A DNA stretch of 32,068 nucleotides from an uncultured Syntrophaceae bacterium. Its GTDB lineage: Bacteria; Desulfobacterota; Desulfomonilia; Desulfomonilales; Desulfomonilaceae. The first letter of the stretch is position 1. The number at the start of each line of letters is the position of its first letter. A program made the position numbers and the translations under genes. The DNA lies in NCBI GenBank assembly GCA_964477215.1, contig CAYZET010000003.1, positions 1 to 32,068 of the forward strand. The letters run 5' to 3'. Of this stretch, positions 8,470-32,068 are shown piece after piece. The notes beneath the pieces were generated by a model, which was not told the DNA's origin, did no database searches, and saw only the letters and a list, made by a program, of their open reading frames with translations.

Positions 8470-8599
8470 GGCTTCTCCTTTGTTCAGATGCTCCCCCAGA
8501 GAAGCAGTCTGTCAATGTCGAACTTGGATGGTGCAACTCGCTGCGATGGGGCGAGGATACTCGCAACCAACACTCCTCAGCTCCAGTGAGCCGCCCTGC

Positions 8600-9469: not shown

Positions 9470-9881
9470 TCCTAACTCTCCTTATTCTATGGCTTCGATC
9501 TCACAGCCCAATCACATGCGGTAGGGCCATCCGATCAGGAAACGGGGGAGCGGCACTCTCAAGAGCATCCAAGCGGCCGCACACTCATGCTGGCGCATTT
9601 CCCGGAGACCGGTAATAAATTCGAGTTGACTAGTCATGGTGTGACTAGATACCATAGTACCTCCTGGTCCCGCAATACTCAAATTTCGGGCCGCCAAAAA
9701 AAAAGCCTGGACCTGCGACGTGCAGTGTTTCCAAAAGGTTAGCTCGGGATAACCCACGAGCTCGCAAGATTCTTGCATGAATCCACGATCAAGGTTATGC
9801 TAAGCGGTTGGGGCCCATCGGACCGGCCGTTGACTCAACGACCGCTGGCCCGGGCGGATGGTTGTTCACGGAGACCTTCAC

Positions 9882-10388
9882 ATGCTCAAGACCATCGAGA
9901 TCCATACCACGTCCGAAGAAGACACGTTCCGGTTGGGGCGCTCCATCGGAGAGATCTTGAAACCTGAGGATGTGATCTTGCTGTTGGGCAACCTCGGAAC
10001 CGGAAAGACCAGACTGGCAAAAGGTATCGTGTCGGCAGCTACCCGCGTGGATCCAGAGGAGGTTGTCAGCCCTTCCTTCACGCTGGTCAACCGATTTGAA
10101 GGTCCCTTTCCCGTTCATCATGCCGATCTGTACAGAATCGAGGCAGATCAGGTGGAAGACATCGGTCTCGATGAAGCTTTGGCAGAAGAAGGGGCGCTGA
10201 TTATTGAGTGGGCTGAGAAGATGCCGAGCGTGTTCCCGGATTCACTACGCATCGTGATCTCCTACTGTCTGGATCCGGACTCTCGGAGGATTATTCTGCA
10301 GTGGCCGGAACACGGGTCCTGGGACGAGCGGATCGGTACAGTTGCTGAAGCGTGGTCTGTCGAATATTGCGCGGCCAGCGGAATCTGA
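9882..10388 (+). CDS. tsaE: tRNA t6A37 threonylcarbamoyl-transfer ATPase TsaE (YjeE)
   Basis: Walker A GNLGTGKT, SPSFTLVN and HADLYR motifs appear in the characteristic TsaE order. ATG 9882 gives 168 aa. Confidence 0.85.
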   Translation: MLKTIEIHTTSEEDTFRLGRSIGEILKPEDVILLLGNLGTGKTRLAKGIVSAATRVDPEEVVSPSFTLVNRFEGPFPVHHADLYRIEADQVEDIGLDEALAEEGALIIEWAEKMPSVFPDSLRIVISYCLDPDSRRIILQWPEHGSWDERIGTVAEAWSVEYCAASGI

Positions 10389-13312: not shown

Positions 13313-13912
13313 TCATCTGCGCTCCGAGAGGGAGGATGTGGGCCTGAGAACATCCAGCCCTCGATCGCTCTCCTTGATCCACGTTTGCCCATCGCTGAAG
13401 AGCAGGCCTGAAACAGCGATCACGTCCCGGACGGACAGGGAGATCACCAGCGACACAACCAACCACATCTCAGGGGGGAATCCAGAAGTCTTCCAGCAAT
13501 ATATGGCGCAGATAGGGACGAAGATTCCTATTGGCAGCAAAAGCACGACGAGAAACACGTTCCTCGGCAGCTCCCCGCGAGCGGCAGGATGTATTCCCCC
13601 TGAAGCAGGGTAAGAGCGAATCACTGCAACCCAGGCGATCCAGTATCCGCAAAAGCGTACAAAGAGATAAATTGACACCGTTCCGACGGAGGTGACCATG
13701 AGCTGACTGAGACTAGGCAAGGGGCCTGTGACGGGAAACAGCAGACGCAGCGCTATGAGGATCAACAATCCCACCAGCAGGGCATACAATCCCAATCCTC
13801 GCGAAGGGAGCACAATTTCGTCCTCGAGGAAAAACGGTGGTGGATCGAGCGGGAGCGAAGTCGGGATAGATTTCGCCTTAGGCTGGATCCGCTGCCGTGC
13901 GCGTCCGCCCAT
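13313..13912 (-). CDS. hypothetical integral membrane protein
   Basis: 199-aa ORF with about 5 hydrophobic helices, for example LYALLVGLLILIALRLLF and NVFLVVLLLPIGIFVPICAIYCW. No family recognised, and the start is uncertain. Confidence 0.5.
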   Translation of the reverse strand: MGGRARQRIQPKAKSIPTSLPLDPPPFFLEDEIVLPSRGLGLYALLVGLLILIALRLLFPVTGPLPSLSQLMVTSVGTVSIYLFVRFCGYWIAWVAVIRSYPASGGIHPAARGELPRNVFLVVLLLPIGIFVPICAIYCWKTSGFPPEMWLVVSLVISLSVRDVIAVSGLLFSDGQTWIKESDRGLDVLRPTSSLSERR

Positions 13913-14175: not shown

Positions 14176-14727
14176 TCAGGGAGCCCTCCTTGGAGGAGGA
14201 GCCGGTTGCTCGTCCTCACCCTGCTCCGACGTGAGAGGAGAAGCTCCTGCGTCCAATCTCATCGAGCTGAGCAGACCGGATGCTGGCGAGCGTTCGAGCA
14301 CAGGTTTGTCCACTTCCCTCCGGAAGCCCTCCATCCTGCTGATCAGGGTTTCGGTTTCCCTTATCTGTGCTTCGACACGCGATAGCGCGGAATCAACAGT
14401 AGCCTTATCGCCGGCGCTGGTCTGCCCGCAGGGAGAATAGAGACACGAACCCCGGGTCGAAATATCGTCTCTCAGCCTCTCCAGCTTAGCCTGCTGTCGC
14501 TCCAATTCGTTCTCAGCTCGTTCAAGCTGGTCTGCCACTCGGTAGCGCGTCAGTGTCATCGCTGAATTGCCCACTTCCTTCGCATACCGTATCCGCTCCA
14601 ACTGTGTGTGCATGTGCGTCTGCACCTGATGCAGAGCCCAATCGTCATGCTCCTCCGCGGCAAGCACGGGCCAAGGGAGTCCAAACAAGAGCGCAAGAAT
14701 CATCCGACTGATCGTTTGTTTTCGCAT
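14176..14727 (-). CDS. secreted coiled-coil protein, hypothetical
   Basis: ATG 14727 is preceded by GGAGG at 8 nt. Signal peptide is MRKQTISRMILALLFGLPWPVLAA. Heptad-like charged helices (LERAENELERQQAKLERLRDDI; ALSRVEAQIRETETLISRMEGF) are followed by an acidic, Pro-rich tail. Confidence 0.6.
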   Translation of the reverse strand: MRKQTISRMILALLFGLPWPVLAAEEHDDWALHQVQTHMHTQLERIRYAKEVGNSAMTLTRYRVADQLERAENELERQQAKLERLRDDISTRGSCLYSPCGQTSAGDKATVDSALSRVEAQIRETETLISRMEGFRREVDKPVLERSPASGLLSSMRLDAGASPLTSEQGEDEQPAPPPRRAP

Positions 14728-18455: not shown

Positions 18456-18484
18456 TTGACGTCACTGGAGAAGAAGTCTATTAT
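18456..18484 (+). promoter_or_regulatory. candidate sigma-70-type promoter of carboxylase-like set 1
   Basis: TTGACG (18456-18461), a 17-nt spacer, then TATTAT (18479-18484), about 25 nt upstream of ATG 18509. It is only meaningful if the CDS starts at 18509 rather than TTG 18437. Confidence 0.3.
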
Positions 18485-18508: not shown

Positions 18509-20647
18509 ATGGCGAGACCTGCCGGATTCAGCGAGACGTTCATCATTGACGTGGATGTGGGAGGGACGTTTACCGATGCGATCGTCTCTTCCCGTTCAAG
18601 AAGTCTCTTTATCAAGGTCGATACTACCCAGCACGAGTTAAGCCTCTGTCTCCAGGAGGTGCTTCAACGAGCTGTAGCGGAGCTCGATCTTCCGGATGTG
18701 AGGTGTCTTCTGACGGCTACCACAGTAGCTCGGCTCTCCACCAGCCTTTCCACGAACTTTCTTGTCGAAGGGATAGGAGCCCAATGTGGTTTGATAGTGC
18801 CGCAAGGATGGAGAGGATCGTATATTTCGCACCTCCGTTCGATCAATTCGCCTTCTCTCAGGCTGGTAGAAGAGATGATTGCCGAAGTCTCATTGAACGG
18901 ACCACAGGGAGCAATAGACCAAGTTCTCGAAGACGAAATCCGTGACTCAGTCCAAAAACTTTTGGAGAGAGGCGTATCTATCATCGTGGTAAGCGTAGCG
19001 ACCGGTGAAGCGTGGGCTCAAGTCGAGCAGATGATCAAGCAGGTAATTCTGAGATACTATCCCTCTCATTTCATCGGATCCTTGCCCGTGCTGCTTAGCA
19101 GTCAGATTAGCTCCAGCCCGGACTTCTTCGAGCGCACGAACACCGCTGTCCTCAACGCATATTGTCACAGGCCGATGGCAAACATTTTCTATCAAATCGA
19201 GGACTTCTTGAGGAAGGAAGGCTATCCGTATCCGTTGTTGGTGGTTCATTGCAATGGGGGAAGTGCCCGAGTCGCGAAGACCAGAGCTATTCTGACTATC
19301 AATTCGGGCGCTGCCGCAGGAGTGTTGGGCGTTGGGAGGCTTGCCGGGGAATACGATCTAGAGAATGTGATTTCCGTAGATGTCGGTGGCACAACAACGG
19401 AGATCGGTCTGCTGCTGGATGGAGAAATCGATTACGGCACGTGGGAAGACGATGGCAATCCCCCGGTTGATCTGCCTCGTCCAGTGGCTCTGTCATTAGG
19501 TCTCGGCGGTGGCTCGCTGGTACGTATGGGGCAATCGGGAGAGCTCCTTGTGGGTCCACAGAGCGCAGGCGCTTTTCCCGGTCCCGCGTGTTACGAGCTT
19601 GGAGGGACGATTCCGACTCTTACCGACGCCTACCTAATTCTCGGGTACCTTGACCAGCACTACTACCTTGGTGGAGCTAAGAAGATAAACCTCGACCGAG
19701 CGGTTCGAGCCGTCACAGAGCATCTAGCAGTGCCTCTAGGCGTATCGTGCGAAGAGGCCGCTCTGCGGGTCAAGAAGCGAGCCCTGGAGATCCTGGGCAA
19801 AACTGTGACTGCAGTCATGGAAAGAACCGGGGTCCAAGAAGAAGAGTTCGCTCTCGCTGCTGTAGGGGGCGCCGGAGGATGCGTCGGTCCGGAGCTCTTT
19901 GCCCGTCTTCGCATGAAGAAGATGCATTTTTTCCGACACGGTGCGGTCTTCGGAGCATACGGAAGCAGCGGCATGGACGTAGTGCACCTTTACGAGCATC
20001 GGTTCCACCTGAGTTGTTTCGGCCGACGGTCAGAAGCTCAGAAGAACGCAAAGATCGTGAATGCCGTGGTGGCCGATATCCAGCGCCTCGCGTGCAAAGA
20101 TATGCGAGGCGAAGGGTTCCGCGGCGAAGACATTCGATTCGACGTTGAGGCCGAATTTATGACGCCAAATGGGAGGATCCCGGTACGTACCAGGATGCCA
20201 AGCCCGTTTCTTTGGCCTTCACGGGATTGGCCCACCATTGCCGAGCGAGTTGCTGTCAAGCTCAAAGACGAGAATCCCGAGACTTGGGAGACCATCACGC
20301 TCTCGAGGCTCTTCGTGAGGGCCAAGGCCCACCTGCCAAGGAATGAGAACGGAGCGGATTCCTTTATAACGCGGAATCCGAAGGGAAAGAATTCCTTCAA
20401 AGGTACTCGTGCCGTGTACGGCGATTCCGGAACGTGGCTGGAATATCCCGTGTACGAGTGGGATCTGTTGCCTGCACCGTTGATCATGAAAGGACCGGCA
20501 ATCCTGGAGGCATCCCATACCACCGTGCTCTTGCCTCCCGGCACGGTGCTCGAATTGGATCAGAACCTCAATGGAACGGTCCGGTTGATCGGAAGTGACA
20601 ATGAAGATCAGAATCACGGAATACCTGGACATAGATGTCCGGACTGA
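18509..20647 (+). CDS. hydantoinase A/oxoprolinase-family subunit (HyuA-like; carboxylase-like set 1, position 1)
   Basis: N-terminal ASKHA phosphate-1 motif DVDVGGTFTD and a second motif VDVGGTTTEIG. Length is 712 aa from ATG 18509. TTG 18437 is possible, but its 24 extra residues have no counterpart in the three paralogues. Confidence 0.85.
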   Translation: MARPAGFSETFIIDVDVGGTFTDAIVSSRSRSLFIKVDTTQHELSLCLQEVLQRAVAELDLPDVRCLLTATTVARLSTSLSTNFLVEGIGAQCGLIVPQGWRGSYISHLRSINSPSLRLVEEMIAEVSLNGPQGAIDQVLEDEIRDSVQKLLERGVSIIVVSVATGEAWAQVEQMIKQVILRYYPSHFIGSLPVLLSSQISSSPDFFERTNTAVLNAYCHRPMANIFYQIEDFLRKEGYPYPLLVVHCNGGSARVAKTRAILTINSGAAAGVLGVGRLAGEYDLENVISVDVGGTTTEIGLLLDGEIDYGTWEDDGNPPVDLPRPVALSLGLGGGSLVRMGQSGELLVGPQSAGAFPGPACYELGGTIPTLTDAYLILGYLDQHYYLGGAKKINLDRAVRAVTEHLAVPLGVSCEEAALRVKKRALEILGKTVTAVMERTGVQEEEFALAAVGGAGGCVGPELFARLRMKKMHFFRHGAVFGAYGSSGMDVVHLYEHRFHLSCFGRRSEAQKNAKIVNAVVADIQRLACKDMRGEGFRGEDIRFDVEAEFMTPNGRIPVRTRMPSPFLWPSRDWPTIAERVAVKLKDENPETWETITLSRLFVRAKAHLPRNENGADSFITRNPKGKNSFKGTRAVYGDSGTWLEYPVYEWDLLPAPLIMKGPAILEASHTTVLLPPGTVLELDQNLNGTVRLIGSDNEDQNHGIPGHRCPD

Positions 20648-20936
20648 ACACTGGTGCTGCAGCCGATGTGGCCATCAGCTCTGGAGCGCACGGGACAATT
20701 ACAAGAAGGGTTGTATCGTCGGAGAACGAGACCCTCGATCGATCTATCCTCCAGTCCTCGATGGTGAATTCACGTTCTCACCCGATCCGGAGTGGATTCG
20801 AATTGTGGAGTTCTACTGTCCCCAATGCGGGACAATGATTGAGAACGAGTTTCTCCCTCCGGGACACCCTCCTACTCACGACATCGAACTGGACATGGAT
20901 GCTTTCAAGGAAAGGCACACAGGCAAAGAAGAATGA
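20601..20936 (+). CDS. acetone/acetophenone carboxylase gamma-subunit-family small Cys4 protein (set 1)
   Basis: 111 aa: MKIRITEYLDIDV..., with CxxC pairs (CSRCG and CPQCG) and EFLPPGHPPTHD. It is clearly paralogous to the ORF at 29375. It overlaps the upstream gene by 47 nt and the downstream gene by an ATGA overlap. Confidence 0.85.
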   Translation: MKIRITEYLDIDVRTEHWCCSRCGHQLWSARDNYKKGCIVGERDPRSIYPPVLDGEFTFSPDPEWIRIVEFYCPQCGTMIENEFLPPGHPPTHDIELDMDAFKERHTGKEE

Positions 20937-23083
20937 ATCCCATGACTCCCAACAGCATAGACATCGACGTGGGAGGCACGTTCACCGATTGCTATGTGCA
21001 CCATCAGGGAAGGGTGGTGAGCGCGAAATCTCCCACCACGGGATTCGATTTGTGGGTGGGATTCTTTCGAGCCCTGACGGAAGCGGCGAAAGCTCTCGAT
21101 GTGCAATTCCATGCCCTCCTCCATCAGACGAACGTCATTCGGTACTCGACGACGTTGGCGATGAACAAGCTGCTCGAACGAAAAGGACCGAAGCTCGGAC
21201 TCATCACTACCAAGGGATTTGAAGATTCGGTGCTAATAGGTAGGGGAGCCCAGTGGGATGACGGGCTATCCAAGCGGGAAAGTAGAAATCTGGCTTCAGT
21301 ACGGAAGCCTGAGCCGCTGATCCCGAGAAGGTGGATAGTCGGCGTCAAAGAGCGGATCGATCATGCAGGGAGGATTCTAAGACCACTGGATGAAGAGGAC
21401 ACGAGAAGGAAGATCGTAGACCTCATGGGCTGGGGCGTGAGAGGCATTGTGGTTTCTTTGCTCTGGGCTCATCGCAATCCGGTCCACGAGCTGCGCATCA
21501 GGGAGCTCATCGAGGAAGAGTACCCGCAGAGTTGCTTGGGAAGCCTCAATGTGGTTCTCGCCCATGAGCTACAGCCGAAGAAGGGGGAGTACCAGCGGAC
21601 TATAACTGCGGTGCTGAACTCCTATCTTCACGAGTCCATGGCTCGCGACCTGTTGAGCATTCGAGCCGAGCTCAGAGAGATGGGGTATGCCGGTCCCCTC
21701 CTCATGGTTCACAACTCTGGTGGAATGGCAGAATTGAGTAAAACTCGCGCAATTGACACGTTCAACGGGGGACCAATAGCGGGTATTGTCGGAAGTCTAG
21801 AGATCGCGAAGTTGTACGGTTTTGAGAATGTCATCACTACGGATATGGGGGGAACCAGTTTCGATGTAGGTGTCGTTACGGAAGGACGCCCCCACTTCTT
21901 TGAGGTTCGCCCAACGATAGATCGGTGGATGGTAAACACAACCATGATCGCTGGGAAGTCCATCGGAGCAGGCGGAGGCTCTATCGCCCGCATCAACGAA
22001 TGTTTAGGAAATCTGCTCGAAGTCGGCCCTCTCAGTGCCGGCGCAATGCCGGGCCCGGCATGTTACAATTTGGGCGGATCAGAACCTACGGTAACGGACG
22101 CTGATGTGGCACTGGGCTACATCAATCCCGCCTATTTCCACGGTGGGAAGATTAAGCTCGACCGAGAGCTTGCTTTGAAAGCCATCGAAGCGAAGGTAGC
22201 CCGTCCGCTCGGCATGACCGCCGAACAGGCGGCGTTTGCAATAAGGACCCTTGTTGACGGCAACATGGGAAACCATCTCTTCAAGGAAACAGTGCTTCGC
22301 GGTCACGACCCGAGGGAATATATTCTGTTCAGCTTCGGAGGAGCCGGACCGACTCATTGCTGCGGTTATGCTTCTGTGGGCCAAATCGATAGATTGATAG
22401 CTTTCCCGTTTTCACCGGTATTCTGCGCGTATTCAGGATCGCTGATGGACATCCGACATGTGTACGAGGTCTCTCGGCGATTGAGCGTTCTCAGACCGGG
22501 TCAGAAAGACCCCGTTCTTGACCTCGATGAGTTCAACAAGACTGTCAGGAAGCTTATAGGCGAGGCATTTGCAAACGCCAAAGCAGAAGGCCTGGATCCT
22601 GGAAAACTCGTCTTCATCCTGGAGCTTGACATGAAGTATGGAGGGCAATTGCATTTCAAGAGAACGACCTCTCCAGGGCTCCTGTTGGTGAACATGCAAG
22701 AAGTCGAAACGCTTCTGACCACATTCGGCGAGGATTATGCTCATTCGTTCAGTCCCGCGGGAGTGTTTCCCGAAGGGGGAGTCAGCATAGAGAATTTTGT
22801 GTTGCACGCCATCTATCCCCTCAAGAAGCTCAGCCTTCCGTCGTATCCCTCCAAATCGTCAAAGGTGAATCGACAAGCGAAAAAGGGGTGGAGAAACGTC
22901 TACTGGGACAACGAGAAGGAATTCGTGAAGACGCAGATCTACGACAGCAGCGAGTTGTGTGCCGGCAACGTCATCGAAGGTCCGGCGGTCATTGAGGCCC
23001 AGCATACAACCCTGGTTCTGCCCGATGGCGCCACCCTCCGCATGGATAAGCATTTGAATGCAGTCATCGATTTGACGAATTAA
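20933..23083 (+). CDS. hydantoinase A/oxoprolinase-family subunit (HyuA-like; set 1, position 3)
   Basis: DIDVGGTFTD at the N-terminus, MVHNSGGMAE, and a second phosphate motif TDMGGTSFDVG. 716 aa. It shares long near-identical blocks with the ORF at 29746. Confidence 0.9.
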   Translation: MNPMTPNSIDIDVGGTFTDCYVHHQGRVVSAKSPTTGFDLWVGFFRALTEAAKALDVQFHALLHQTNVIRYSTTLAMNKLLERKGPKLGLITTKGFEDSVLIGRGAQWDDGLSKRESRNLASVRKPEPLIPRRWIVGVKERIDHAGRILRPLDEEDTRRKIVDLMGWGVRGIVVSLLWAHRNPVHELRIRELIEEEYPQSCLGSLNVVLAHELQPKKGEYQRTITAVLNSYLHESMARDLLSIRAELREMGYAGPLLMVHNSGGMAELSKTRAIDTFNGGPIAGIVGSLEIAKLYGFENVITTDMGGTSFDVGVVTEGRPHFFEVRPTIDRWMVNTTMIAGKSIGAGGGSIARINECLGNLLEVGPLSAGAMPGPACYNLGGSEPTVTDADVALGYINPAYFHGGKIKLDRELALKAIEAKVARPLGMTAEQAAFAIRTLVDGNMGNHLFKETVLRGHDPREYILFSFGGAGPTHCCGYASVGQIDRLIAFPFSPVFCAYSGSLMDIRHVYEVSRRLSVLRPGQKDPVLDLDEFNKTVRKLIGEAFANAKAEGLDPGKLVFILELDMKYGGQLHFKRTTSPGLLLVNMQEVETLLTTFGEDYAHSFSPAGVFPEGGVSIENFVLHAIYPLKKLSLPSYPSKSSKVNRQAKKGWRNVYWDNEKEFVKTQIYDSSELCAGNVIEGPAVIEAQHTTLVLPDGATLRMDKHLNAVIDLTN

Positions 23084-23110
23084 GTGGCAGGCCCCAATGG
23101 AGATGCGGAC

Positions 23111-25231
23111 ATGATCCTGGACATGACTTTCACCGAGAGATTGAAGCCGGAACCGTTTGATCCCGTAGATCTGGAGTACATGCAGCGCCTTGACAGCGTC
23201 GATTTTGAGATTGCAGCGGAAAAGCTCAACATGATTGTTGAGGAAGCCAAAGACATCTTTGTGCGGAGCGGTGTGTCGAGCATGCTGCGATCCGGAGATG
23301 TTGCGGTAGGTATATACACCGCTAAGGGTGACATGGTCACGGCTGCATGCGGTTCATATTTGTACGCCGTATGCGGTCAACCCCAGATCAAGTACATCTG
23401 TGCACGTTGGAAAGACCATCCCACCGTGGGAGTAAGGCCCGGTGACATATTCTACGCAAATGACGCTGTATACGGCGGTGTCCACAATCCCGATCAGTTC
23501 GCGTTTATTCCCATTTTCTATGGCGATCGTCTAATCGCGTGGGCTGCTGCAGCCTGTCATCAGCCCGAAACAGGAGCTTGCGAGCCTGGAGGTATGCCCG
23601 TAAGCGCCAGAACCAGATATGACGAGGGACTTAAATTGAGTCCTATCAGGATCGGTGAAGATTTCGTGCTGCGTGAGGACCTCCTGGAGATGATGGCCAA
23701 CATGGTTTCGCGAGCACCCCACATGCAACTCATCGATTTGAAAGCTCGGGTGCTAAGTTGCGACCGGGTGAGGATTCGCGTGGAACAACTGGCCAAGGAC
23801 AAGGGACCGGAGTTTCTCATGGGGGTTTTCACCAGAGTGATAGCCATGACTTCGGAAGCGGCCCGGGCTAGGATATCGAGCTGGGTCGATGGTACGTTTC
23901 GAAGCGTTGTTTTTACGGACCATATAGGTATCGACGAAGGACTCGTGCGAGGCAAATGCACTCTGATCAAGCGAGGAGAAAGACTCCATTTCGATTTCAC
24001 GGGTACCTCACCGGAGACACCGGGGCCGTACAATGCGTTCAAGCATACAATGGTTGCTCACTGCGCCATGTACCTCTATGGCTTTCCTTTCAATGACCTG
24101 CCTCTGTCTGCCGGTATATGGGAGCCCATCGATTTCACCGTGCCGCGAGGAACCTGCCTCAATGCCAATCCGGAATCGGCAGTCGCGAACTCCGTGCTCG
24201 TCTGCAGCCTTGCCATGTGCCTGACCCACTTGACGATGTCCAAGCTTCTCTTTGCATCAGGGCAGATCGATCAGGCTACCGCTCCATACGGAAACAATGG
24301 TGACGCGTACGTCATGTCCGGAAGTAACCAATGGGGGATCCCGTTTACTGACATGCTGGCTTATCCGCTCACCTGCGAAGGGGGAGGTGCCCGCCATAAT
24401 TCCGACGGAGTCGACGCGTGGGGTTTTCCCTGGGGGCCGTGGGGAAGGGGTCCGGATGTCGAAGAGGAAGAGGATGAACGTCCGCACGTGCATCTCTTCC
24501 AGAAGATTCTTAAGGATTCGTGCGGACACGGCAAGTATCGAGGGGGAGCAGGGATTACGGTGGCCTGGATGGTTCAGGGAGCTCCCGCCGCGGTTTACCA
24601 ATCAATCGTGAAGTCGTCCCGGGTGCAGGCTCTCCAATCGTTTTTCGGAGGATATCCTCCGCCCACCCATCCGGGCATCCAACTGCGAAATACCGGGATA
24701 CCAGACCGAATGAGGCTCGGATCCGCGGACATTCCCGCGGATGTTTATGAGCTTGTGTTAGACGAATCTCTCAGGGGTCTCTGTGAAGTTACCACGAATT
24801 TGCGGAAAGCGATGCCCTTTGCAGAGGGAGACGTCTTCGTCGGATGCTCCCACGGAGGAGTTGGATACGGCGATGTTCTGGAACGGGACCCGGCTCTCGT
24901 CATGGAAGACGTGCAGAACGGGATCATTTCCGACTGGGTGGCCCGGAATGTGTACTGTGTGGCATACGATCCGGTTACCATGACGGTACTCCGAACGGAA
25001 ACGCAAGAACAGAGGAATGCGGCAAGGAAAGCCCGCCTGGCGTCCGGCCGCTCTTACCAGAGCTTCTTTGCCGAATGGGCTGACATTAAGCCCCCCGACA
25101 ATATCCTGAAATACTATGGAACCTGGCCGGATGCGGCCTCGGGAGCGAGAGAGGAGAATGAAGACCAGGGCCATCCCCCCACGGCAACTCTGAATTCTTT
25201 GACCAATAGGCCAGACCATGAGGACACATGA
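23111..25231 (+). CDS. hydantoinase B/oxoprolinase-family subunit (HyuB-like; set 1)
   Basis: HyuB-type features include C-terminal SHGGVGYGDVLERDPALVMEDVQNGIIS. The N-terminus aligns with the partial ORF at 31890 (LKPEPFD / LKPEPPD; FVRSGVSS / FVRSSRSS). ATG 23111 after GGAGA is preferred, and GTG 23084 is possible. Confidence 0.88.
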   Translation: MILDMTFTERLKPEPFDPVDLEYMQRLDSVDFEIAAEKLNMIVEEAKDIFVRSGVSSMLRSGDVAVGIYTAKGDMVTAACGSYLYAVCGQPQIKYICARWKDHPTVGVRPGDIFYANDAVYGGVHNPDQFAFIPIFYGDRLIAWAAAACHQPETGACEPGGMPVSARTRYDEGLKLSPIRIGEDFVLREDLLEMMANMVSRAPHMQLIDLKARVLSCDRVRIRVEQLAKDKGPEFLMGVFTRVIAMTSEAARARISSWVDGTFRSVVFTDHIGIDEGLVRGKCTLIKRGERLHFDFTGTSPETPGPYNAFKHTMVAHCAMYLYGFPFNDLPLSAGIWEPIDFTVPRGTCLNANPESAVANSVLVCSLAMCLTHLTMSKLLFASGQIDQATAPYGNNGDAYVMSGSNQWGIPFTDMLAYPLTCEGGGARHNSDGVDAWGFPWGPWGRGPDVEEEEDERPHVHLFQKILKDSCGHGKYRGGAGITVAWMVQGAPAAVYQSIVKSSRVQALQSFFGGYPPPTHPGIQLRNTGIPDRMRLGSADIPADVYELVLDESLRGLCEVTTNLRKAMPFAEGDVFVGCSHGGVGYGDVLERDPALVMEDVQNGIISDWVARNVYCVAYDPVTMTVLRTETQEQRNAARKARLASGRSYQSFFAEWADIKPPDNILKYYGTWPDAASGAREENEDQGHPPTATLNSLTNRPDHEDT

Positions 25232-26663
25232 CGTGCCACGAACGGATGCTCGGAATCCGAGAACGATCTTGGTGATCGAAAGCGACGGATACTGTCGTTT
25301 CTTCTTTGATGAGGTTCTCCGTCAGGGAGACCTGTCAATTGTCATCGCAGCCGACACCGTGAGCGGGAGCAGGATGCTGGAAGAGCGCGATTTCGACGCG
25401 GTAATCGTAAATCTTCCCACGTTCAGTCAATCCCAACTTGCCTCGGTAAGCATACTGGCACAGGGCAACTGCCGGGTACCTATCATTGCAGTTTCGGAGA
25501 GATTTGAGGTCGACTTCGCGGTCGAAGTGATTCGTAGTGGCGCATTTGACTACTTGACGAAGCCGTTCAACAACATTGCCCGCTTGGAAAGCGCCCTCCG
25601 AGAAGCATTTGCCAAACGCGATCGGGCCAGGGAAGCAGCGCACCTGAGCCAAGCAGAAGTGCAATCCCACGGCCTGATGGGGAGCAGCAAGCCCCTCAGG
25701 GAGCTCCTTGCAGTTATCAACCAGATTGCCGCGCTCAACGTGAGCGTGCTCATAACGGGCGAGAGCGGTACCGGCAAGGAGCTCGTAGCTCGCGCAATCC
25801 ACGTCCGAAGCAACCGCAGCAGCGGGCCGTTCTTTGCCGTCAACTGCGGAGCATTGCCCGAGGGACTTGTGGAAAGCATGCTGTTCGGTCACGAGAAAGG
25901 GGCTTTTACCGGAGCAGTGAGCGCTTCCCCGGGTTTCCTGGAAAAGTCGAGAGGAGGAACCCTTTTCCTGGATGAGGTGGGCGAGCTCAGCCCGAAAGCG
26001 CAGGTCACTCTCTTGAGATTCCTCGAAGAGCGCGAGTTCCTCCGAGTGGGAGGCACCAAGACTCTTCATTCCGACGCTCGCATCATCGCGTCCACGAACA
26101 GGGACCTGGAAAGGGAGGTTGCTGAACACCGATTTCGAGCCGACGTCCATTTTCGCCTGAACGTAGTACATCTGAAGGTGCCGCCTCTGAGGAAGCGCAA
26201 AGACGATATTATCAATCTTGCCCGCTACTTCATGAAGAAATTCAGTCTATCCAATGCCGTGCCAGTACGAACGCTCTCGCCTGAAGCGGCACGAGTGCTC
26301 GAACGATACGATTGGCCGGGAAACGTCCGTGAGCTGGAAAATCTCATCGAGGGATTAATGGCAATCCTTCCAAGTTCCACTCAAACAATCAGTGACAGGG
26401 ACATCCTCGCGTACTCGGATAAGATCCGGCGGTTTGCAGGAGAATCCGAGGGCAACGAATCGATCTCGTCGCTCGCGAATTTGACTCACCGTCAGGCCGT
26501 GGAGCAGTTCGAAACTACGTACCTCAGAGCAGTCCTGGATGCCCACGAAGGGAATGTCACCCGAGCGGCAAAGGCTGCGGACATTCATCCGGTAACGTTT
26601 CATCGGAAGCTCCGAAAGTTAAAAGCAGTACGTTCAGGTCGCGGGGACATTCGTCGCAGTTGA
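25218..26663 (+). CDS. sigma-54-dependent transcriptional activator (NtrC-family EBP) with degenerate receiver domain
   Basis: AAA+ core has Walker A GESGTGKE, GAFTGA, and Walker B FLDEVGEL. The C-terminal Fis-type HTH is GNVTRAAKAADIHPVTFHRKLRKL. The N-terminal CheY-like domain retains S and K (IIAVSE, YLTKPF) but has VIVNLP where LLSDIRMP carries the phospho-acceptor Asp in NtrC. The start overlaps the HyuB stop by 14 nt. Confidence 0.9.
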   Translation: MRTHDVPRTDARNPRTILVIESDGYCRFFFDEVLRQGDLSIVIAADTVSGSRMLEERDFDAVIVNLPTFSQSQLASVSILAQGNCRVPIIAVSERFEVDFAVEVIRSGAFDYLTKPFNNIARLESALREAFAKRDRAREAAHLSQAEVQSHGLMGSSKPLRELLAVINQIAALNVSVLITGESGTGKELVARAIHVRSNRSSGPFFAVNCGALPEGLVESMLFGHEKGAFTGAVSASPGFLEKSRGGTLFLDEVGELSPKAQVTLLRFLEEREFLRVGGTKTLHSDARIIASTNRDLEREVAEHRFRADVHFRLNVVHLKVPPLRKRKDDIINLARYFMKKFSLSNAVPVRTLSPEAARVLERYDWPGNVRELENLIEGLMAILPSSTQTISDRDILAYSDKIRRFAGESEGNESISSLANLTHRQAVEQFETTYLRAVLDAHEGNVTRAAKAADIHPVTFHRKLRKLKAVRSGRGDIRRS

Positions 26664-26770
26664 AAGCTAGTAAGCGTTCGATGGCCTCCTCTTCATAACA
26701 GAGATCGAAGTTTCCCAAACGGCCCTGCAGACATTTCCGACGACTCTACGATAGCACAATCGCATCACTG

Positions 26771-26784
26771 TAGCAATATTGCTA
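26771..26784. repeat. perfect 14-bp palindrome TAGCAATATTGCTA (candidate activator binding site)
   Basis: Read directly. It lies about 190 bp upstream of the -24 element at 26971. Confidence 0.4.
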
Positions 26785-26842
26785 GTGGGCTAACAATGCG
26801 ACATTACAAAGGATGTCATCCATCCTAGCCGGAATGATACTC

Positions 26843-26856
26843 TCATCGGTCGATGA
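26843..26856. repeat. inverted repeat TCATCG-GT-CGATGA
   Basis: Read directly. It has 6-bp arms and lies about 120 bp upstream of the -24 element. Confidence 0.3.
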
Positions 26857-26925
26857 CTCCCGAGCCATCCTCACCACTGACCCCATCGCGGCCATAATCG
26901 ACAGGCCCTAACTTGCTGATTTTCT

Positions 26926-26939
26926 GACAGTTAACTGTC
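26926..26939. repeat. perfect 14-bp palindrome GACAGTTAACTGTC
   Basis: Read directly. It ends 31 bp upstream of the -24 TGGCAC. An IHF-consensus-like AATCAGCAAGTTA (minus strand, 26909-26921) is adjacent. Confidence 0.35.
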
Positions 26940-26970
26940 GCAAGCCAGCTCGCCTCTCTCCTTCGCAGCC

Positions 26971-26985
26971 TGGCACGAATGTTGC
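26971..26985 (+). promoter_or_regulatory. sigma-54 (-24/-12) promoter of carboxylase-like set 2
   Basis: TGGCACGAATGTTGC is an exact match to TGGCAC-N5-TTGC with correct GG-N10-GC spacing. It points toward the set-2 genes and lies downstream of an EBP gene. It is the only canonical match I found in the window. Confidence 0.65.
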
Positions 26986-27237
26986 CTAGTATCCTGAACG
27001 AGGCATGAACGAGATCGTCCGGTCCTTTATCTCTCCCATCATCAGGGAACTTAGTGGACGATTTCACAAACACGCTGCCGTTTTCACTGCAACACGGTTG
27101 ACTCGATTGCGGTGGCACGCGGCAAGAATGGCGGCGAGGGCGGGTTTGAATCCCGCACCTACGGGCACTGCTACGGTACTCCTGGGGCAAAGCCGACGCG
27201 CCCTACCGCGAGGATCTCCGCGCGAACTTCCCATAGC

Positions 27238-27265
27238 GCCGGCGTCTCGCCGGTATTCTTGTTTT
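27238..27265 (+). terminator. terminator/attenuator-like hairpin inside the set-2 leader
   Basis: G-CCGGCG-TCT-CGCCGG-T stem (6 GC-rich bp plus a G-U pair, 3-nt loop) is followed by ATTCTTGTTTTG. The loop is short and the U-tract is interrupted, so the call is weak. Confidence 0.2.
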
Positions 27266-27381
27266 GAACTGGCCTTGAGGGATGGGCGGATTTAGAGCCT
27301 GTCCCAATGCAGGGCAGGTTTGAAGCCTGCGCTTTTTCTCACAGCCTGTTCGAAGAAATGGGTAAAGGAGGGAATTCACGT

Positions 27382-29373
27382 ATGGGATTCACTGCTGACA
27401 TCGACACCGGCGGCACATTCACTGATGGCTTGTTCACGAACGGCCACGAGATCAAACGGGTCAAGGTGGACACCACCCCCCATGATCTCACCGTAGCATG
27501 GATCAATTGCCTCAGACAGGGTGCCGCCCAGTTCGGCTTTTCCACGATCCGCGATTTCTTGGAAAAAGTCGACATCATGCGGTGGTCATCCACCGTTGCG
27601 ACAAATGTCATAGCCGAGCGCAAGGGGCCAAAGCTCGGCCTCTTCGTGAGCGAGGGAAAACAGAAGTCCTTGTATTCGGCCTTGCAGAAGAGCCCGGCCG
27701 TGGGTTTTCTCGTTGAAGAATCGAATATCGAGGCTGTGAGACTGCCCCTCAACACCGAGGATCTTCTCTTGCGAATCCGGCACCTCCTCGAAAAGGGCGT
27801 CCGTCGCATATGCATCAGCCTTGGGAACGGGCTGCGTCATGACGAAGAAGCTACGATCAAAAAGGTTTTCGAAGAGCAATATCCTGACCACTACCTGGGC
27901 AACGTTCCGCTTCTTCTCGGTCGAGATGTCCTCAAACATCAAGACGACATGACCCGCACACATATGGCTCTCATGAACTCGTACGTTCATGGCCCTATGG
28001 CAGTGACGATGTTCAAAGCCGAGGATGAGCTGAGGCAACGAGGATTCCTCAAACCTTTGCTGGTAGGGCACATAGACGGCGGTGTTGCTCGAGTCTCCAA
28101 GACCAAGCCTGTGGACACTATCGAGTCGGGTCCAATCTTCGGTATCCACGCAGGCGCCTACTGGGCCCGGCTCTACGAGCTTCCTCATGTGTTGACGTTG
28201 GACGTGGGTGGCACCACCACAAAGGTGGGGCTCGTAGAGAACTTTAAGCCCGCTGTATCAAGAGATCCTGATATCTTCGGGATCCCTTTGAAGCAGCCCA
28301 TGCTTGATCTGCGCAGCATTCCCCTCGGTGGCGGGAGCGTGGCACGAGGAAATGCAAAGGAGGTTCACCTCGGACCGAAAAGTATGGGAGCCTATCCTGG
28401 CCCCGCCTGTTACGATCTTGGAGGCAGCGAGGCCACTCTGACCGATGCGTACGTATCTAACGGCTTCATCGACCCCGCATACTTTTCCGGAGGAACAAAG
28501 AAACTGAGCTCCTCGAGGTCAGAGAAAATGATCGTGGACAAGGTCGCCACTCCCATTGGTGTGGATCTTCAAGTCGCGTCATACAGGATTGCATCAACTG
28601 CCACAGACATGGTCGCACAGGAGCTTAATCGCGCCATATCGAAGACTAAGAGATCTGCGGCCCAATACGTCCTGTTCGCGTTCGGGGGCAACGGCGGATT
28701 GTTGGGTTTGGAGGCAGCCAAGAAGGCGGGAATAAACAAAGCGTACTTCTTTTCATACGGCTCTGTCCTGAGCGCTTTCGGGTCTTCCGTAGCAGACGTG
28801 TCCCACACCTATGAACATTCGGCGACGATTCCCATCACCCAGACCGCACACGTGGAACAAGCCCTGGAGTGGATGAGAGAGGAGGCTCGGCTAGATATGG
28901 AAGGCGAAGGATTCGATCCCACCAGCGTATCAGCGGAGCTGGAGCTCGTTCTCTTCGATGAGAGAAACAGGGAGAAAGTTTTTTCGGTCACCTCCCCTTG
29001 GGAGATCGGGGAGCCCCGTCACCGGAAAACCATCAAAGACTCTCTCGATGAATCGAGCCTGGGTGACACCCCCGAACAATGGTGTATCGACATAGTGCGG
29101 CTCCGGGTGAGCGCTCCCCTATTGAAGCTCGACCCGTCGAGCTGGGCAGACCAGGGTGAGGATGCGTCTGGTGCTCTCAAGGGAGAACGGGACGTCTGGC
29201 GAGGAACCGAGAAAGTCGCTACCAAGATTTACGATTGGGACAGGCTCAATACGGGAAACATAGTGATCGGTCCCGCAATCATCGAGAGTGTGGACACCAC
29301 GTACGTTGTGAATCGCGGCTGGGAGTTTGTCATGGATCGTTACCGCAATGGCGTTTTGACGAGGAGGGCCTGA
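27382..29373 (+). CDS. hydantoinase A/oxoprolinase-family subunit (HyuA-like; set 2, position 1)
   Basis: ATG 27382 lies 7 nt after AAGGAGGG. DIDTGGTFTD is at the N-terminus and the second motif is LDVGGTTTKVG. 663 aa. The upstream part of ORF 27307 has no paralogue support. Confidence 0.88.
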   Translation: MGFTADIDTGGTFTDGLFTNGHEIKRVKVDTTPHDLTVAWINCLRQGAAQFGFSTIRDFLEKVDIMRWSSTVATNVIAERKGPKLGLFVSEGKQKSLYSALQKSPAVGFLVEESNIEAVRLPLNTEDLLLRIRHLLEKGVRRICISLGNGLRHDEEATIKKVFEEQYPDHYLGNVPLLLGRDVLKHQDDMTRTHMALMNSYVHGPMAVTMFKAEDELRQRGFLKPLLVGHIDGGVARVSKTKPVDTIESGPIFGIHAGAYWARLYELPHVLTLDVGGTTTKVGLVENFKPAVSRDPDIFGIPLKQPMLDLRSIPLGGGSVARGNAKEVHLGPKSMGAYPGPACYDLGGSEATLTDAYVSNGFIDPAYFSGGTKKLSSSRSEKMIVDKVATPIGVDLQVASYRIASTATDMVAQELNRAISKTKRSAAQYVLFAFGGNGGLLGLEAAKKAGINKAYFFSYGSVLSAFGSSVADVSHTYEHSATIPITQTAHVEQALEWMREEARLDMEGEGFDPTSVSAELELVLFDERNREKVFSVTSPWEIGEPRHRKTIKDSLDESSLGDTPEQWCIDIVRLRVSAPLLKLDPSSWADQGEDASGALKGERDVWRGTEKVATKIYDWDRLNTGNIVIGPAIIESVDTTYVVNRGWEFVMDRYRNGVLTRRA

Positions 29374-29374
29374 C

Positions 29375-29749
29375 ATGGGACGACGCGTATCTGTCACCGA
29401 ATACCTGGAGCTCGACGTAGATGAATGCACATGGCACTGTGCTTCGTGCGGTCGTGCGCTGGTAGACGCGGAAGAAAATTACAAGAGAGGATGTCTCGTC
29501 CACAATCGAGATCCTCGTGAAATCCACAACGCTGTGTACGAGGCAGATTTCAACTTCGCTCCCGATCCCTCCTGGGTGAGAATCCTTGAGTTCTATTGCC
29601 CCAGTTGCGGCACACAGATCGAAACCGAGTATCTCCCGCCGGGACATCCTGTTACTCACGACATCAATATTAATGTCACAACGCTGAGAGCCAGGCTCGA
29701 TAGTGGTGAGCTTGCATTGGTCAACAAGAAGCTGGAGGTGAGATCGTGA
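29375..29749 (+). CDS. acetone/acetophenone carboxylase gamma-subunit-family small Cys4 protein (set 2)
   Basis: 124 aa with VTEYLELDV, CxxC pairs (CASCG, CPSCG) and EYLPPGHPVTHD. GAGGAGGG lies 6 nt upstream of the ATG. The stop overlaps the next gene's GTG (GTGA). Confidence 0.88.
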   Translation: MGRRVSVTEYLELDVDECTWHCASCGRALVDAEENYKRGCLVHNRDPREIHNAVYEADFNFAPDPSWVRILEFYCPSCGTQIETEYLPPGHPVTHDININVTTLRARLDSGELALVNKKLEVRS

Positions 29750-31866
29750 ATACCATCGATATTGACGTGGGCGGAACCTTTACCGATCTCGTGATGAATT
29801 ACAACGGAAAGACCATCTTGAAGAAGATGCCTACCACTCCGTACGATCTTTCCGTCTGTTTCTTGAATGTGATCGAAGAAGCGAGCCGTGAGCTGGACCA
29901 GGATTCGGATCAATGCCTGCCCAAGATTGATCTCCTTCGCTACTCCACAACCGTGGCAATGAATAGGCTTATCGAACGTAAGGGACCTGCTTTGGGCCTC
30001 ATTACCACTGAAGGCCATGAGGACTGCATTCTTATCGGCAGAGGTGCGCAATGGGTTGACGGAACTCGCGTCTCTGAGAGGCGGAATCTGGCCATGCAGA
30101 AAAAGCCTGTGCCGCTCATCGCGAGGGAATACATCGTGGGCGTCAGTGAGCGCATCGATTCGTTTGGCAGCGTTATAAGGCCCCTGGACAAGAGCGATGT
30201 CCGCCGAAAGATACATTACCTGGTAGACAAGGGGGTTCGAGGCTTTGTGGTTTCGCTCCTTTGGTCGCAGGTCAATCCAGCTCACGAGAAGATGATCAAG
30301 CAGATCATTCGAGAAGAATACAAGGAATTCTATCTCGGATACTTGCCAGTCGTGCTCGCAAGCGACGTGATTGGACGCTCGGGAGAGTACCAGCGGACCA
30401 TGACAGCGATTCTCGATGCGTATCTGCATCGAGCCATGCAAATCGAGCTGTCCGCCATGTGGGACAAGTTGAGAGAATATAACTATTCCGGACCCTTCAT
30501 GATGGTTCACAACTCCGGCGGCATGGCAGAAGTCTTCAAAACGGATGCTGTCAGGACGTACAGCGCGGGTCCAGTGGCTGGCTTGATCGGATCGTACCGG
30601 CTGGCGCAAGAACTTGGATTCCGCAACGTCATAGCGACGGACGTGGGCGGAACGAGCTTTGACGTTGGCCTCGTGGTCGAGCAGAACGTGAGGAATTACG
30701 AGTTCAGGCCCATACTTGATAGCTGGATGGTGGGGATCACCATGCTCCAGACAATGTCCATTGGTGCTGGAGGAGGGTCCATCGCGTGGATTAACGAGAC
30801 GCTCGGCAATCGCCTGGAAGTGGGACCGCAGAGTGCGGGGTCTTACCCGGGTCCTGTCTGTTACGACCAGGGGGGAGAAGATCCTACCGTGACCGATGCA
30901 GATCTCGTGCTCGGCTACATTGATCCTGACTACTATTTCGGCGGCAGAATGCCTCTTAACAAGAGTAGGGCCGAAGAGGCCATCCAAAGCAAGATAGCGG
31001 ACCCACTCGGGATATCGGCAGCAGAGGCTGCTCTCCTCATCCGCAGGATCGTTGATGCAAACATGTCAGCCGCAATCAGAAAGGAGATCAACCTGCGGGG
31101 GTACGACCCGAGGGATTTCGCCCTCTTTGCCTTCGGAGGAGGAGGCCCCACCCACGTCGCCGGGTACATGGGCGAGCTTCCCGTGTCCGTGATTTTCCCC
31201 TTCTCGCCGGTCTTCTCCGCTCTCGGTTCGTCCGTCATGGACATTAAGCACATCTATGAACGCTCCCGAAGGTACGTCCTCATGGAGCCCCACACCCGAA
31301 AATTCAACACCGATTATGCGGACTTCAACAACGTGGTCGCCGACCTGGTTGAGAAAGCGAAAAGAGAGCTCGTGGGCGAAGGACTGCCGGTGCAAAACGC
31401 TGTTTTTCAGCTCGAGCTCGACATGCTGTACGGCGGCCAGGTTCACCGGAAAAGATCGAGCTCGCCTGTTCTTTTCGTCAAATCTCCCGCTGATATAGAG
31501 GCAATCTACAAAGAGTTCGAGAGGGAGTTCAGCGAGACCTTCAGTCCCCTCGTCGTACATCCCGAGGGTGGGGTGTACGTGGAAAGCTTTGTGGTCACGG
31601 CGTCGATCCCCGCTCGGAAGCCTGAGCTTCCAAGCTACGATTTGCGGAGCCCAGACGCTGGGGCCGCTTTGAAGGGTAAACGACCGTGCTATTGGGGTAA
31701 CGGAGGATATGAGGAGACCGCGGTGTACGACTACGATCTGCTCAGCGCGGGCAATGAAGTTGCGGGACCGGCTATTTTGGAAGCCGAATATACTACCGTG
31801 GTGATCCCGCCCCAATACAAGTGCTCTATAGATCAACACCTGTTCGGACGTATTCAGCGAGCATAA
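29746..31866 (+). CDS. hydantoinase A/oxoprolinase-family subunit (HyuA-like; set 2, position 3)
   Basis: DIDVGGTFTD, RYSTTVAMNRLIERKGPALGLITTEGHEDCILIGRGAQW, MVHNSGGMAE and TDVGGTSFDVG. 706 aa. GTG start after GGAGG. Confidence 0.9.
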   Translation: MNTIDIDVGGTFTDLVMNYNGKTILKKMPTTPYDLSVCFLNVIEEASRELDQDSDQCLPKIDLLRYSTTVAMNRLIERKGPALGLITTEGHEDCILIGRGAQWVDGTRVSERRNLAMQKKPVPLIAREYIVGVSERIDSFGSVIRPLDKSDVRRKIHYLVDKGVRGFVVSLLWSQVNPAHEKMIKQIIREEYKEFYLGYLPVVLASDVIGRSGEYQRTMTAILDAYLHRAMQIELSAMWDKLREYNYSGPFMMVHNSGGMAEVFKTDAVRTYSAGPVAGLIGSYRLAQELGFRNVIATDVGGTSFDVGLVVEQNVRNYEFRPILDSWMVGITMLQTMSIGAGGGSIAWINETLGNRLEVGPQSAGSYPGPVCYDQGGEDPTVTDADLVLGYIDPDYYFGGRMPLNKSRAEEAIQSKIADPLGISAAEAALLIRRIVDANMSAAIRKEINLRGYDPRDFALFAFGGGGPTHVAGYMGELPVSVIFPFSPVFSALGSSVMDIKHIYERSRRYVLMEPHTRKFNTDYADFNNVVADLVEKAKRELVGEGLPVQNAVFQLELDMLYGGQVHRKRSSSPVLFVKSPADIEAIYKEFEREFSETFSPLVVHPEGGVYVESFVVTASIPARKPELPSYDLRSPDAGAALKGKRPCYWGNGGYEETAVYDYDLLSAGNEVAGPAILEAEYTTVVIPPQYKCSIDQHLFGRIQRA

Positions 31867-31889
31867 CCCTAGGCAAGGAGGTTTGCGAA

Positions 31890-32068
31890 ATGGCAATTTT
31901 GACTCCTGAAGAGAAGCTGGCCATGCTCAAGCCAGAGCCGCCCGACGAGGATGAAATACGGTGCGTGGAATGGCTTGCTCCGGGCGACTACGAAGTCGGC
32001 TTTGAACGCATGAACAATATATTGGATGAAGCTATGGAGGTATTCGTCAGATCGTCCCGCAGCTCGAT
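31890..32068 (+). CDS. hydantoinase B/oxoprolinase-family subunit, 5' partial (set 2; truncated by window end)
   Basis: My own translation from ATG 31890 (AAGGAGG 8 nt upstream) reads MAILTPEEKLAMLKPEPPDEDEIRCVEWLAPGDYEVGFERMNNILDEAMEVFVRSSRSS. It aligns with the N-terminus of the HyuB-like ORF at 23111. The frame is open to the end of the window. Confidence 0.8.
   Translation, partial: MAILTPEEKLAMLKPEPPDEDEIRCVEWLAPGDYEVGFERMNNILDEAMEVFVRSSRSS

Follow-up and report, generated by a model that had tools for sequence, protein, structure and literature searches.

Two paralogous Apc-type gene sets, predicted to encode ketone carboxylases, on either side of a sigma-54 activator gene in a probable sulfate-reducer-type bacterium

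In a 32,068-nucleotide stretch of contig CAYZET010000003.1 from an uncultured bacterium (the window), two tandem gene sets, set 1 (18509-25231) and set 2 (27382-32068, running off the window end), flank a gene for a sigma-54-dependent activator. These sets probably encode two paralogous ATP-dependent ketone carboxylase core complexes of the acetophenone carboxylase (Apc) type (alpha' gamma alpha beta), organised in two transcription units and converting ketones to beta-keto acids. This reading is based on gene content, family placement, motif conservation, promoter conservation and purifying selection, from which we infer the reaction, the identity of the substrates and the action of this activator on this promoter. 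Set 2 is a fairly close relative of acetophenone carboxylase, and set 1 represents a rarer sister subfamily. The locus extends a known enzyme family and is not a new kind of system; a 2017 paper (PMC5214803) had already described the Apc family with its diversity, its order of four or five genes and the uncertainty about its functions.

Both sets have the gene order HyuA, Cys4 gamma, HyuA, HyuB, which is the apcABCD order (Pfam and NCBIfam profile searches; Table 1). The eight open reading frames (ORFs) that a first-pass annotation of the window had reported for the two sets were all present on the plus strand where it had placed them, as seen in an ORF check and with Pfam. The profile searches proposed there matched the Hydantoinase_A/Hydant_A_N, Hydantoinase_B and Acetone_carb_G families, the latter with both gamma proteins; A1, C1, A2 and C2 each matched Hydant_A_N, Hydantoinase_A and Hydant_A_C (E 1e-58 to 1e-72). 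In NCBIfam, every subunit gave its top match with the Apc subunit that fits its place in the gene order (ApcA, ApcB, ApcC or ApcD). Together with the gene order, this bears out the Apc-type inventory that had been claimed for both sets. The proposed start codons stand as well: the ATG at 27382 is preceded by a ribosome-binding site (RBS), AAAGGAGGGAAT, that is invariant in an alignment of five related loci, and the ATG at 18509 lies just 3' of a sigma-70-like site.

To follow set 2 beyond the window we used a contig of the same species (ERZ1303174 NODE_3, loci L020 and L022, hereafter the sister strain), which shows 95-96% nucleotide identity over 19987-32068. It was reached via near-identical homologues; exact-sequence look-ups gave no match for C2 and C1 and only contigs of 2-4 kb for gamma. 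The D2 fragment of the window is identical to the L020 ApcD in 58 of 59 residues. The public call of A1 in the sister strain (L022 3304-5706) is 800 aa long, about 88 codons more than with the 18509-type start, and probably reaches too far into the intergenic region, as the window contains stop codons at this place.

Subunit lengths fit those of Apc. The beta proteins have 706 aa (D1) and 687 aa (D2, from the sister strain), the alpha proteins 716 aa (C1) and 706 aa (C2), the alpha' protein A2 663 aa, and the gamma proteins 111-113 aa (B1) and 124 aa (B2), compared to 684, 732 and 658 aa for the beta, alpha and alpha' chains of the Apc structure (PDB 5L9W) and about 128 for the gamma model. 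The exception is A1, which with 712 aa is longer than a usual alpha'. By the features used by Weidenweber et al. 2017 (PMC5214803), namely gene order, branch, subunit lengths and motifs, both sets are Apc-type.

The two sets differ in their distance to the characterised enzyme. For set 2, the identity to 5L9W is 41% for alpha' (A2, 5l9w_b), 60% for alpha (C2, 5l9w_B, 985 bits) and 57% for beta (sister-strain ApcD, 5l9w_A), while in set 1 it is 32% for A1, 49% for C1 (5l9w_B) and 43% for D1 (5l9w_A). Between the sets, identities are 33% (A), 51% (B), 51% (C) and 43% (D). In a neighbour-joining tree (100 bootstraps; distance method only, with Acx left out and partial reference sequences), ApcC and ApcA proper were nested within the set-2 clades C2 and A2 (bootstrap 100). 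The set-1 alpha clade (C1) was sister to C2 plus ApcC (bootstrap 99) and the alpha' clade (A1) was sister to A2 plus ApcA (100), so that the alpha/alpha' duplication is older than the split of the two sets. Caprolactamase (CapA) and N-methylhydantoinase fell outside the Apc clades. The first-pass annotation had named, as a finding that would speak against it, a phylogeny in which both sets fall in a characterised clade with the same gene order; this is what we observed for set 2, but not for set 1. Its picture of two equally unassignable sets was therefore overstated, as set 2 groups with the characterised Apc and set 1 does not.

The sequence motifs of the family are largely kept in both sets. 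All four HyuA-type proteins have the ASKHA ATP motifs DxGGTxTD, D(V/M)GGT and GxxPGP, the gamma cysteines Cys22/25/75/78 are found in B1 and B2, and the metal site D65/H123/D126/H148 is present in both beta proteins (D1 and the set-2 ApcD). The alpha fingerprint R/KERiDsxG reads KERIDHAG in C1 and SERIDSFG in C2, with S instead of R/K at the first position, and is not found in A1 or A2. When compared to the same-species contig, all eight genes showed low ratios of non-synonymous to synonymous substitution (dN/dS 0.035-0.18), A1 being the fastest-evolving subunit. With the ATP motifs, the Cys4 residues and the beta metal site intact and a low dN/dS, both sets look functional and neither appears to be decaying. 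Pseudogenisation of set 1 was considered and ruled out by its dN/dS of 0.04-0.18.

Table 1. Features of the two gene sets and the region between them (positions in the window)
Feature	Position	Strand	Remarks
Sigma-70-like promoter candidate, TTGACG-17-TATTAT, 5' of set 1	18456..18484	+	10/12 consensus bases; consensus match only
A1, HyuA-type in alpha' (apcA) position of set 1	18509..20647 (ORF from 18437)	+	712 aa
B1, Cys4 gamma of set 1	20595..20936	+	111-113 aa; Acetone_carb_G E 1e-35
C1, alpha (apcC-type) of set 1	20933..23083	+	716 aa
D1, beta (apcD, HyuB-type) of set 1	23084..25231	+	706 aa from 23111; Hydantoinase_B E 8e-87
Sigma-54-dependent activator gene between the sets	25218..26663	+	Pfam
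Perfect palindrome TAGCAATATTGCTA (TAGCAA-N2-TTGCTA), candidate activator site	26771..26784		about 200 bp upstream of the sigma-54 site
Sigma-54 -24/-12 promoter TGGCACGAATGTTGCC for set 2	26971..26986	+	invariant in five-locus alignment
A2, alpha' (apcA) of set 2	27382..29373 (ORF from 27307)	+	663 aa
B2, Cys4 gamma of set 2	29375..29749	+	124 aa; Acetone_carb_G E 9e-36
C2, alpha (apcC) of set 2	29746..31866	+	706 aa
D2, beta (apcD) N-terminus of set 2, first 59 codons	31890..32068 (ORF 31890-32066)	+	ApcD E 4.5e-12

The first-pass annotation had seen neither an epsilon subunit nor a CoA ligase. Within the window this is correct, as no epsilon-like or CoA-ligase gene was found by tblastn, but the absence is an effect of the window edge, because the same-species contig continues with the rest of ApcD, then a 319-aa URO-D-fold protein whose best NCBIfam match is ApcE (E 1e-20), and then a 441-aa PaaK-like CoA ligase. 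The same module of A2, B2, C2, D2, epsilon-like and ligase genes was found in Desulfomonilaceae, Syntrophaceae, Desulfatiglans, Actinomycetes, Thermoleophilia, Marinimicrobia, Pseudomonadota and Paenibacillus. In Paenibacillus, a thiolase gene follows 3' of the ligase gene. In an Arenicellales contig (L006) it was seen up to the epsilon-like gene, where the contig stops. This module order fits the known route from a ketone via the beta-keto acid and the beta-ketoacyl-CoA to thiolysis.

In the model that we favour, unit 2 would begin at the sigma-54 promoter at 26971 and code for the ApcA/B/C/D-like proteins, the ApcE-like protein and the PaaK-like CoA ligase. It most likely acts like acetophenone carboxylase, which converts acetophenone, HCO3- and 2 ATP to benzoylacetate, 2 ADP and 2 Pi and requires ApcE. 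The two ASKHA-type subunits would spend two ATP on activating a methyl ketone and bicarbonate; the product would be a beta-keto acid, of which the ligase would then make the CoA ester for thiolysis. Unit 1 would consist of A1-B1-C1-D1 and the activator gene and would be expressed independently of sigma-54, its activator probably switching on unit 2. Set 1 itself is most likely a second carboxylase with another ketone or co-substrate specificity.

As observed in the sister strain, the region 3' of the CoA ligase gene (L020 17252-21076) encodes, on the opposite strand, a cNMP-binding protein, an ankyrin-repeat protein and a second sigma-54 activator with receiver and PAS domains, whose AAA+ and HTH part shares 39% identity with that of the first.

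Furthermore, we searched the whole window on both strands for sigma-54 promoters (TGGCAC-N5-TTGCW, at least 10 of 11 positions and the correct GG/GC spacing, GG-N10-GC). Only one site reached this score, at 26971, upstream of set 2. Equivalent sites were found upstream of set 2 in the sister strain (L020) and in the related loci L004, L005, L013, L023 and L029, and weaker ones in L018 and L024. Upstream of set 1, no sigma-54 site was found in seven loci. Set 2 thus has both elements of a sigma-54 operon, a -24/-12 element and an enhancer-binding-protein gene, and set 1 does not. The sigma-54 control that had been assigned to both sets is consequently supported for set 2 but not for set 1. The sigma-70-like candidate 5' of set 1 is identical in the sister strain.

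The activator gene overlaps the stop of D1 by 14 nt. Its product matches Sigma54_activat, AAA_lid_14 and HTH_8 and, weakly, Response_reg, and no recognisable ligand-binding domain was found with Pfam. In all loci that span the junction (10/10), the activator gene lies directly 3' of the set-1 beta gene: the window, the sister strain and eight other loci of Desulfobacterota type (L004, L005, L013, L018, L023, L024, L028 and L029). At the position of NtrC Asp54, the receiver has Asn in the window, as it does in the sister strain and in L005; in Desulfatiglans this residue is His, and one Desulfomonilaceae metagenome-assembled genome (MAG) has Asp. No histidine kinase gene adjoins the activator gene in the window. 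The replacement of the phospho-acceptor Asp by Asn and the lack of an adjacent kinase gene suggest that the receiver acts independently of phosphorylation. As a regulatory hypothesis, we propose that the set-2 sigma-54 promoter responds to the activator encoded together with set 1.

A different role for set 1 could follow from this arrangement, that of a trigger enzyme that senses a ketone or forms an inducer: it would convert or bind the ketone and thus release the activator, with its receiver that would not be phosphorylatable, to switch on set 2. The invariable position of the activator gene, a phospho-acceptor position that varies among lineages between N, H and D, the missing neighbouring kinase gene and ligand-binding domain, and the unrelated PucR-type regulator that occupies the same position between the sets in Paenibacillus are all compatible with such a role. 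However, this support is purely positional, and regulators are commonly co-transcribed with catabolic operons. Moreover, set 1 shows the purifying selection and the catalytic motifs of an ordinary enzyme, and in L028 set 1 and the activator occur without a nearby set 2. We therefore give the trigger role little credence.

The stretch that separates set 2 from the activator gene (26680-27197) cannot be aligned with that of the otherwise 96%-identical sister strain (518 bp vs 760 bp); the sigma-54 site within it is retained with identical sequence. The palindrome upstream of this site (Table 1) occurs only once in the window. Its counterpart in the sister strain reads TAGCAAGGTTGCTA, and loci further removed show no clear conservation of it. 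Since its conservation is limited to the species, it is a weak candidate for a binding site. In the alignment of the leader from five loci, the promoter and the RBS alone were conserved, and outside the species the leader is not. The leader of about 400 nt from the sigma-54 promoter to the A2 start contains a strong terminator-like hairpin at 27238-27254 (7 pairs, 6 of them G-C, and a T-rich tail). No regulatory RNA was matched with Rfam across the window or in the set 2 leader. An attenuator function of the hairpin was not adopted, given the missing Rfam match and a leader that conserves only promoter and RBS. An ORF of 115 aa on the minus strand (26843-27190) had no Pfam match.

Set 1 is rare. 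Only about 42 clusters at 90% identity are relatives of A1 in a collection of 5.8 billion proteins, after which the scores fall to those of ordinary alpha' proteins. The double layout nevertheless recurs in Desulfomonilaceae, Syntrophaceae, Desulfatiglans, Desulfobacula and Paenibacillus, while set 2 alone is found in many phyla. Set 2 adjoins set 1 in the window, the sister strain, L004, L005, L013, L018, L023, L024 and L029, but not in L028. In this JGI metagenome contig (L028 7705-15646), set 1 and the activator have no set 2 within 6.5 kb downstream; the gamma gene is apparently reduced to a 39-aa call, and histidine kinases and response regulators are encoded upstream. In Paenibacillus naphthalenovorans the order is set 1, regulator, set 2. 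The set-1-like alpha gene of strain PR-N1 of this species (L012 1433-3559) is split into ORFs of 325 and 376 aa, which may be due to a frameshift or a sequencing error.

Each double cluster has one epsilon-like and one ligase gene. This single copy and the recurrence of the layout would fit if the two sets acted serially in one pathway or exchanged subunits, either by sharing the ApcE-like protein or by carboxylating two positions or successive intermediates. Such cooperation appears improbable to us: set 2 occurs alone in many phyla, set 1 can exist without a nearby set 2, and with just 33-51% identity between their subunits the two sets are less likely to form mixed complexes.

Several observations weigh against the ketone carboxylase reading. 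All subunits score far below the equivalog cut-offs of the NCBIfam acetophenone carboxylase models (NF042960, NF042974-NF042977), so that by this standard neither set is acetophenone carboxylase proper. In bits against cut-off, set 2 reaches 588/1250 (A2, ApcA), 185/250 (B2, ApcB) and 1049/1500 (C2, ApcC), and set 1 reaches 403/1250 (A1, ApcA), 173/250 (B1, ApcB), 776/1500 (C1, ApcC) and 650/1500 (D1, ApcD); the ApcD of L005 scores 1039/1500 and the ApcE-like protein 74/450. The authors of the Apc structure caution that function is uncertain in distant members (PMC5214803). The proposed acetophenone pocket, in Apc alpha formed by L81, F281, N282, P285, I333, Q344 and T345, differs in both sets: C2 has M, Y, S, P, L, Q and T, which are conservative changes, and C1 has M, F, N, P, I, A and G, in a clade where the pocket is more strongly altered and more variable than in C2. 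The alpha' residues E248, D274 and K281 (5l9w_b numbering) are kept in A2, whereas A1 has N, D and E, and within the A1 clade 41-43 of 43 members have S/N in place of E248 and E in place of K281. E248 and K281 were assigned to bicarbonate binding, an assignment that the paper itself calls tentative (PMC5214803). Their loss in A1 therefore makes carboxylation by set 1 less secure. Set 1 also has neither an epsilon gene of its own nor an attached ligase gene, although an epsilon is not found in every Apc-type cluster (PMC5214803). Finally, we saw no thiolase, alcohol dehydrogenase or benzoyl-CoA pathway gene, either in the window or over the next 10 kb downstream in the sister strain. It has also been argued, with regard to acetone, that sulfate reducers cannot afford a ketone carboxylation so expensive in ATP (PMC7888143). 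This last point bears on the source, a probable sulfate-reducer-type bacterium. Its lineage, described as apparently anaerobic in the first-pass annotation, is probably strictly anaerobic, for which the nearest genomes, all Desulfomonilaceae and Syntrophaceae MAGs, are the sole basis.

The altered alpha' site raises the question whether set 1 is a carboxylase. It might be an ATP-dependent kinase or hydrolase acting on another carbonyl compound and retaining the four-subunit Apc architecture. The replacements in the A1 clade resemble the N...D state of alpha and the hydantoinases. A1 is also equidistant from ApcA and ApcC, with 300 and 296 bits against the alpha' and alpha chains of 5l9w (against the NCBIfam models it scores 403 bits for ApcA and 296 bits for ApcC), and set 1 has no attached epsilon or ligase gene. 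On the other hand, within the family only carboxylases are so far known to have a gamma and a second HyuA-type subunit (PMC5214803). Set 1 also retains the beta metal site and both sets of ATP motifs, and it usually adjoins set 2 with its epsilon and ligase genes. We consider a non-carboxylase function of set 1 unlikely. There is a slim chance that set 1 is a distinct, rare Apc-like subfamily with a remodelled alpha' site that is functionally coupled to a non-phosphorylatable sigma-54 activator, either catalysing a reaction unknown to the family or forming an enzyme-sensor that gates set 2.

For set 2, the question is rather how narrowly it follows its characterised relative. It could be a true acetophenone carboxylase in the anaerobic degradation of ethylbenzene, 1-phenylethanol or acetophenone, with set 1 serving an analogue such as propiophenone or a substituted acetophenone. 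Set 2 has the clade and the full apcABCDE order in common with the characterised Apc, and its partner ligase is of the aryl-acetate (PaaK) type. In addition, a gene for a short-chain dehydrogenase/reductase (SDR) lies directly 5' of set 2 in a Desulfobacula MAG, and 1-phenylethanol dehydrogenase is an SDR. Against this stand the identity of just 41-60% and the scores under the equivalog cut-offs, as well as the Tyr that replaces Apc F281 in all 121 set-2-clade proteins checked (121/121). Moreover, one commonly finds the module in SAR324, Marinimicrobia and Actinomycetes, groups in which ethylbenzene catabolism would not be expected, and no ethylbenzene dehydrogenase or benzoyl-CoA genes were found nearby (window and 10 kb downstream in the sister strain). 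A dedicated acetophenone pathway is possible but, in our view, rather doubtful, and we retain the broader assignment to ketone carboxylation.

We agree with the first-pass annotation that the substrate is not readable from the sequence. An assignment from neighbour genes was dropped, since these differ between lineages and are not transferable to the window. In Desulfatiglans, the neighbours are a radical SAM gene and a CoA transferase gene. In the Desulfobacula sp. MAG (L024 778-6329 and L026 15617-20335), the SDR gene precedes set 2, no CoA ligase gene lies 3' of the epsilon-like gene, and the double cluster is flanked by catabolic genes, some of them of leucine-catabolism type: an IcmF-like fused B12 mutase, thiolase, 3-hydroxyacyl-CoA dehydrogenase, acyl-CoA dehydrogenase, enoyl-CoA hydratase, a carboxyltransferase and an HMG-CoA-lyase-like protein. 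These flanks may form an island for ketone or branched-chain catabolism. They resemble the ketone-induced proteins of Desulfosarcina cetonica (PMC7888143), which fits general ketone catabolism and likewise is not transferable to the window.

The closest known system is ApcABCDE of Aromatoleum aromaticum EbN1 (PDB 5L9W; apcABCDE-bal operon). It shares with the sets described here the alpha', gamma, alpha, beta order, similar subunit sizes, the Cys4 gamma, ATP motifs in both HyuA-type subunits and the beta metal site; set 2 also has the epsilon and CoA ligase genes in the same succession and belongs to the same clade. In contrast, identities to it are just 41-60% for set 2 and 32-49% for set 1, under the equivalog cut-offs, the pocket residues differ, set 1 lacks an epsilon gene and its alpha' site is altered, and the host lineage is probably strictly anaerobic. 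The PaaK-like ligase gene lies where the Aromatoleum operon has bal. Aromatoleum Apc is regulated by the two-component system AdiRS, whereas here a sigma-54 activator is predicted.

Acetone carboxylase AcxABC (PDB 5M45, 5SVB) belongs to the same superfamily and has in common the Cys4 gamma and ATP-dependent carboxylation of a methyl ketone. The acetone carboxylases of Xanthobacter and Rhodobacter are controlled by AcxR, a sigma-54-type activator. Unlike the sets here, AcxABC has one HyuA-type subunit instead of two, gamma as the last gene (acxABC), and longer beta and gamma homologues; the proteins of our locus score 137-337 bits against Acx versus 724-985 bits against Apc. The two-subunit hydrolases HyuAB, CapAB and 5-oxoprolinase (PDB 6YRA, 7HK5) share the HyuA and HyuB folds and ATP-dependent carbonyl activation, but they have no gamma and no second HyuA, the proteins here score far lower against CapA and CapB in NCBIfam than against Apc, and these hydrolases lie outside the Apc clades.

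As of the 2017 structure paper, a single enzyme of the Apc branch had been characterised (PMC5214803). In the open-access literature searched, we found no later characterised one besides that of Aromatoleum, and for Apc-like enzymes in sulfate reducers, Desulfomonile and Desulfatiglans it held metagenome annotations only and no biochemical characterisation. It is mildly new that the double cluster recurs with a regulator gene between its halves, that the alpha' site is altered in set 1, and that ATP-costly carboxylases occur in Desulfobacterota-type anaerobes. Complete Apc-type modules with core, epsilon-like and CoA ligase genes are widespread, and their occurrence, often doubled, in these anaerobes runs counter to the energetic argument on sulfate reducers (PMC7888143). 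Set 1 and set 2 form a paralogue pair with which one can ask what fixes substrate and co-substrate specificity. In practice, the results allow better annotation of "hydantoinase/oxoprolinase family" genes in metagenomes of anaerobes and marine samples.

The genes upstream in the window are unrelated housekeeping genes, encoding enolase, a Na+/H+ exchanger, Usp and MFS proteins, an ABC-type transporter with MoeA, TsaE, aspartate kinase, a LeuA/CimA-like protein, a kinase, a nucleotidyltransferase and Ddl. ORFs of 108-199 aa without a Pfam match at E <0.001 were found at 13313-13912 and 14176-14727 (minus strand), and also at 1331-1831 and 9795-10121. On the minus strand at 5248-9469, the genes of the ABC transporter (an ATPase with TOBE domains, a permease and a SBP_bac_11 binding protein) are interleaved with the moeA gene, a cluster that looks like molybdate or tungstate uptake together with cofactor genes.

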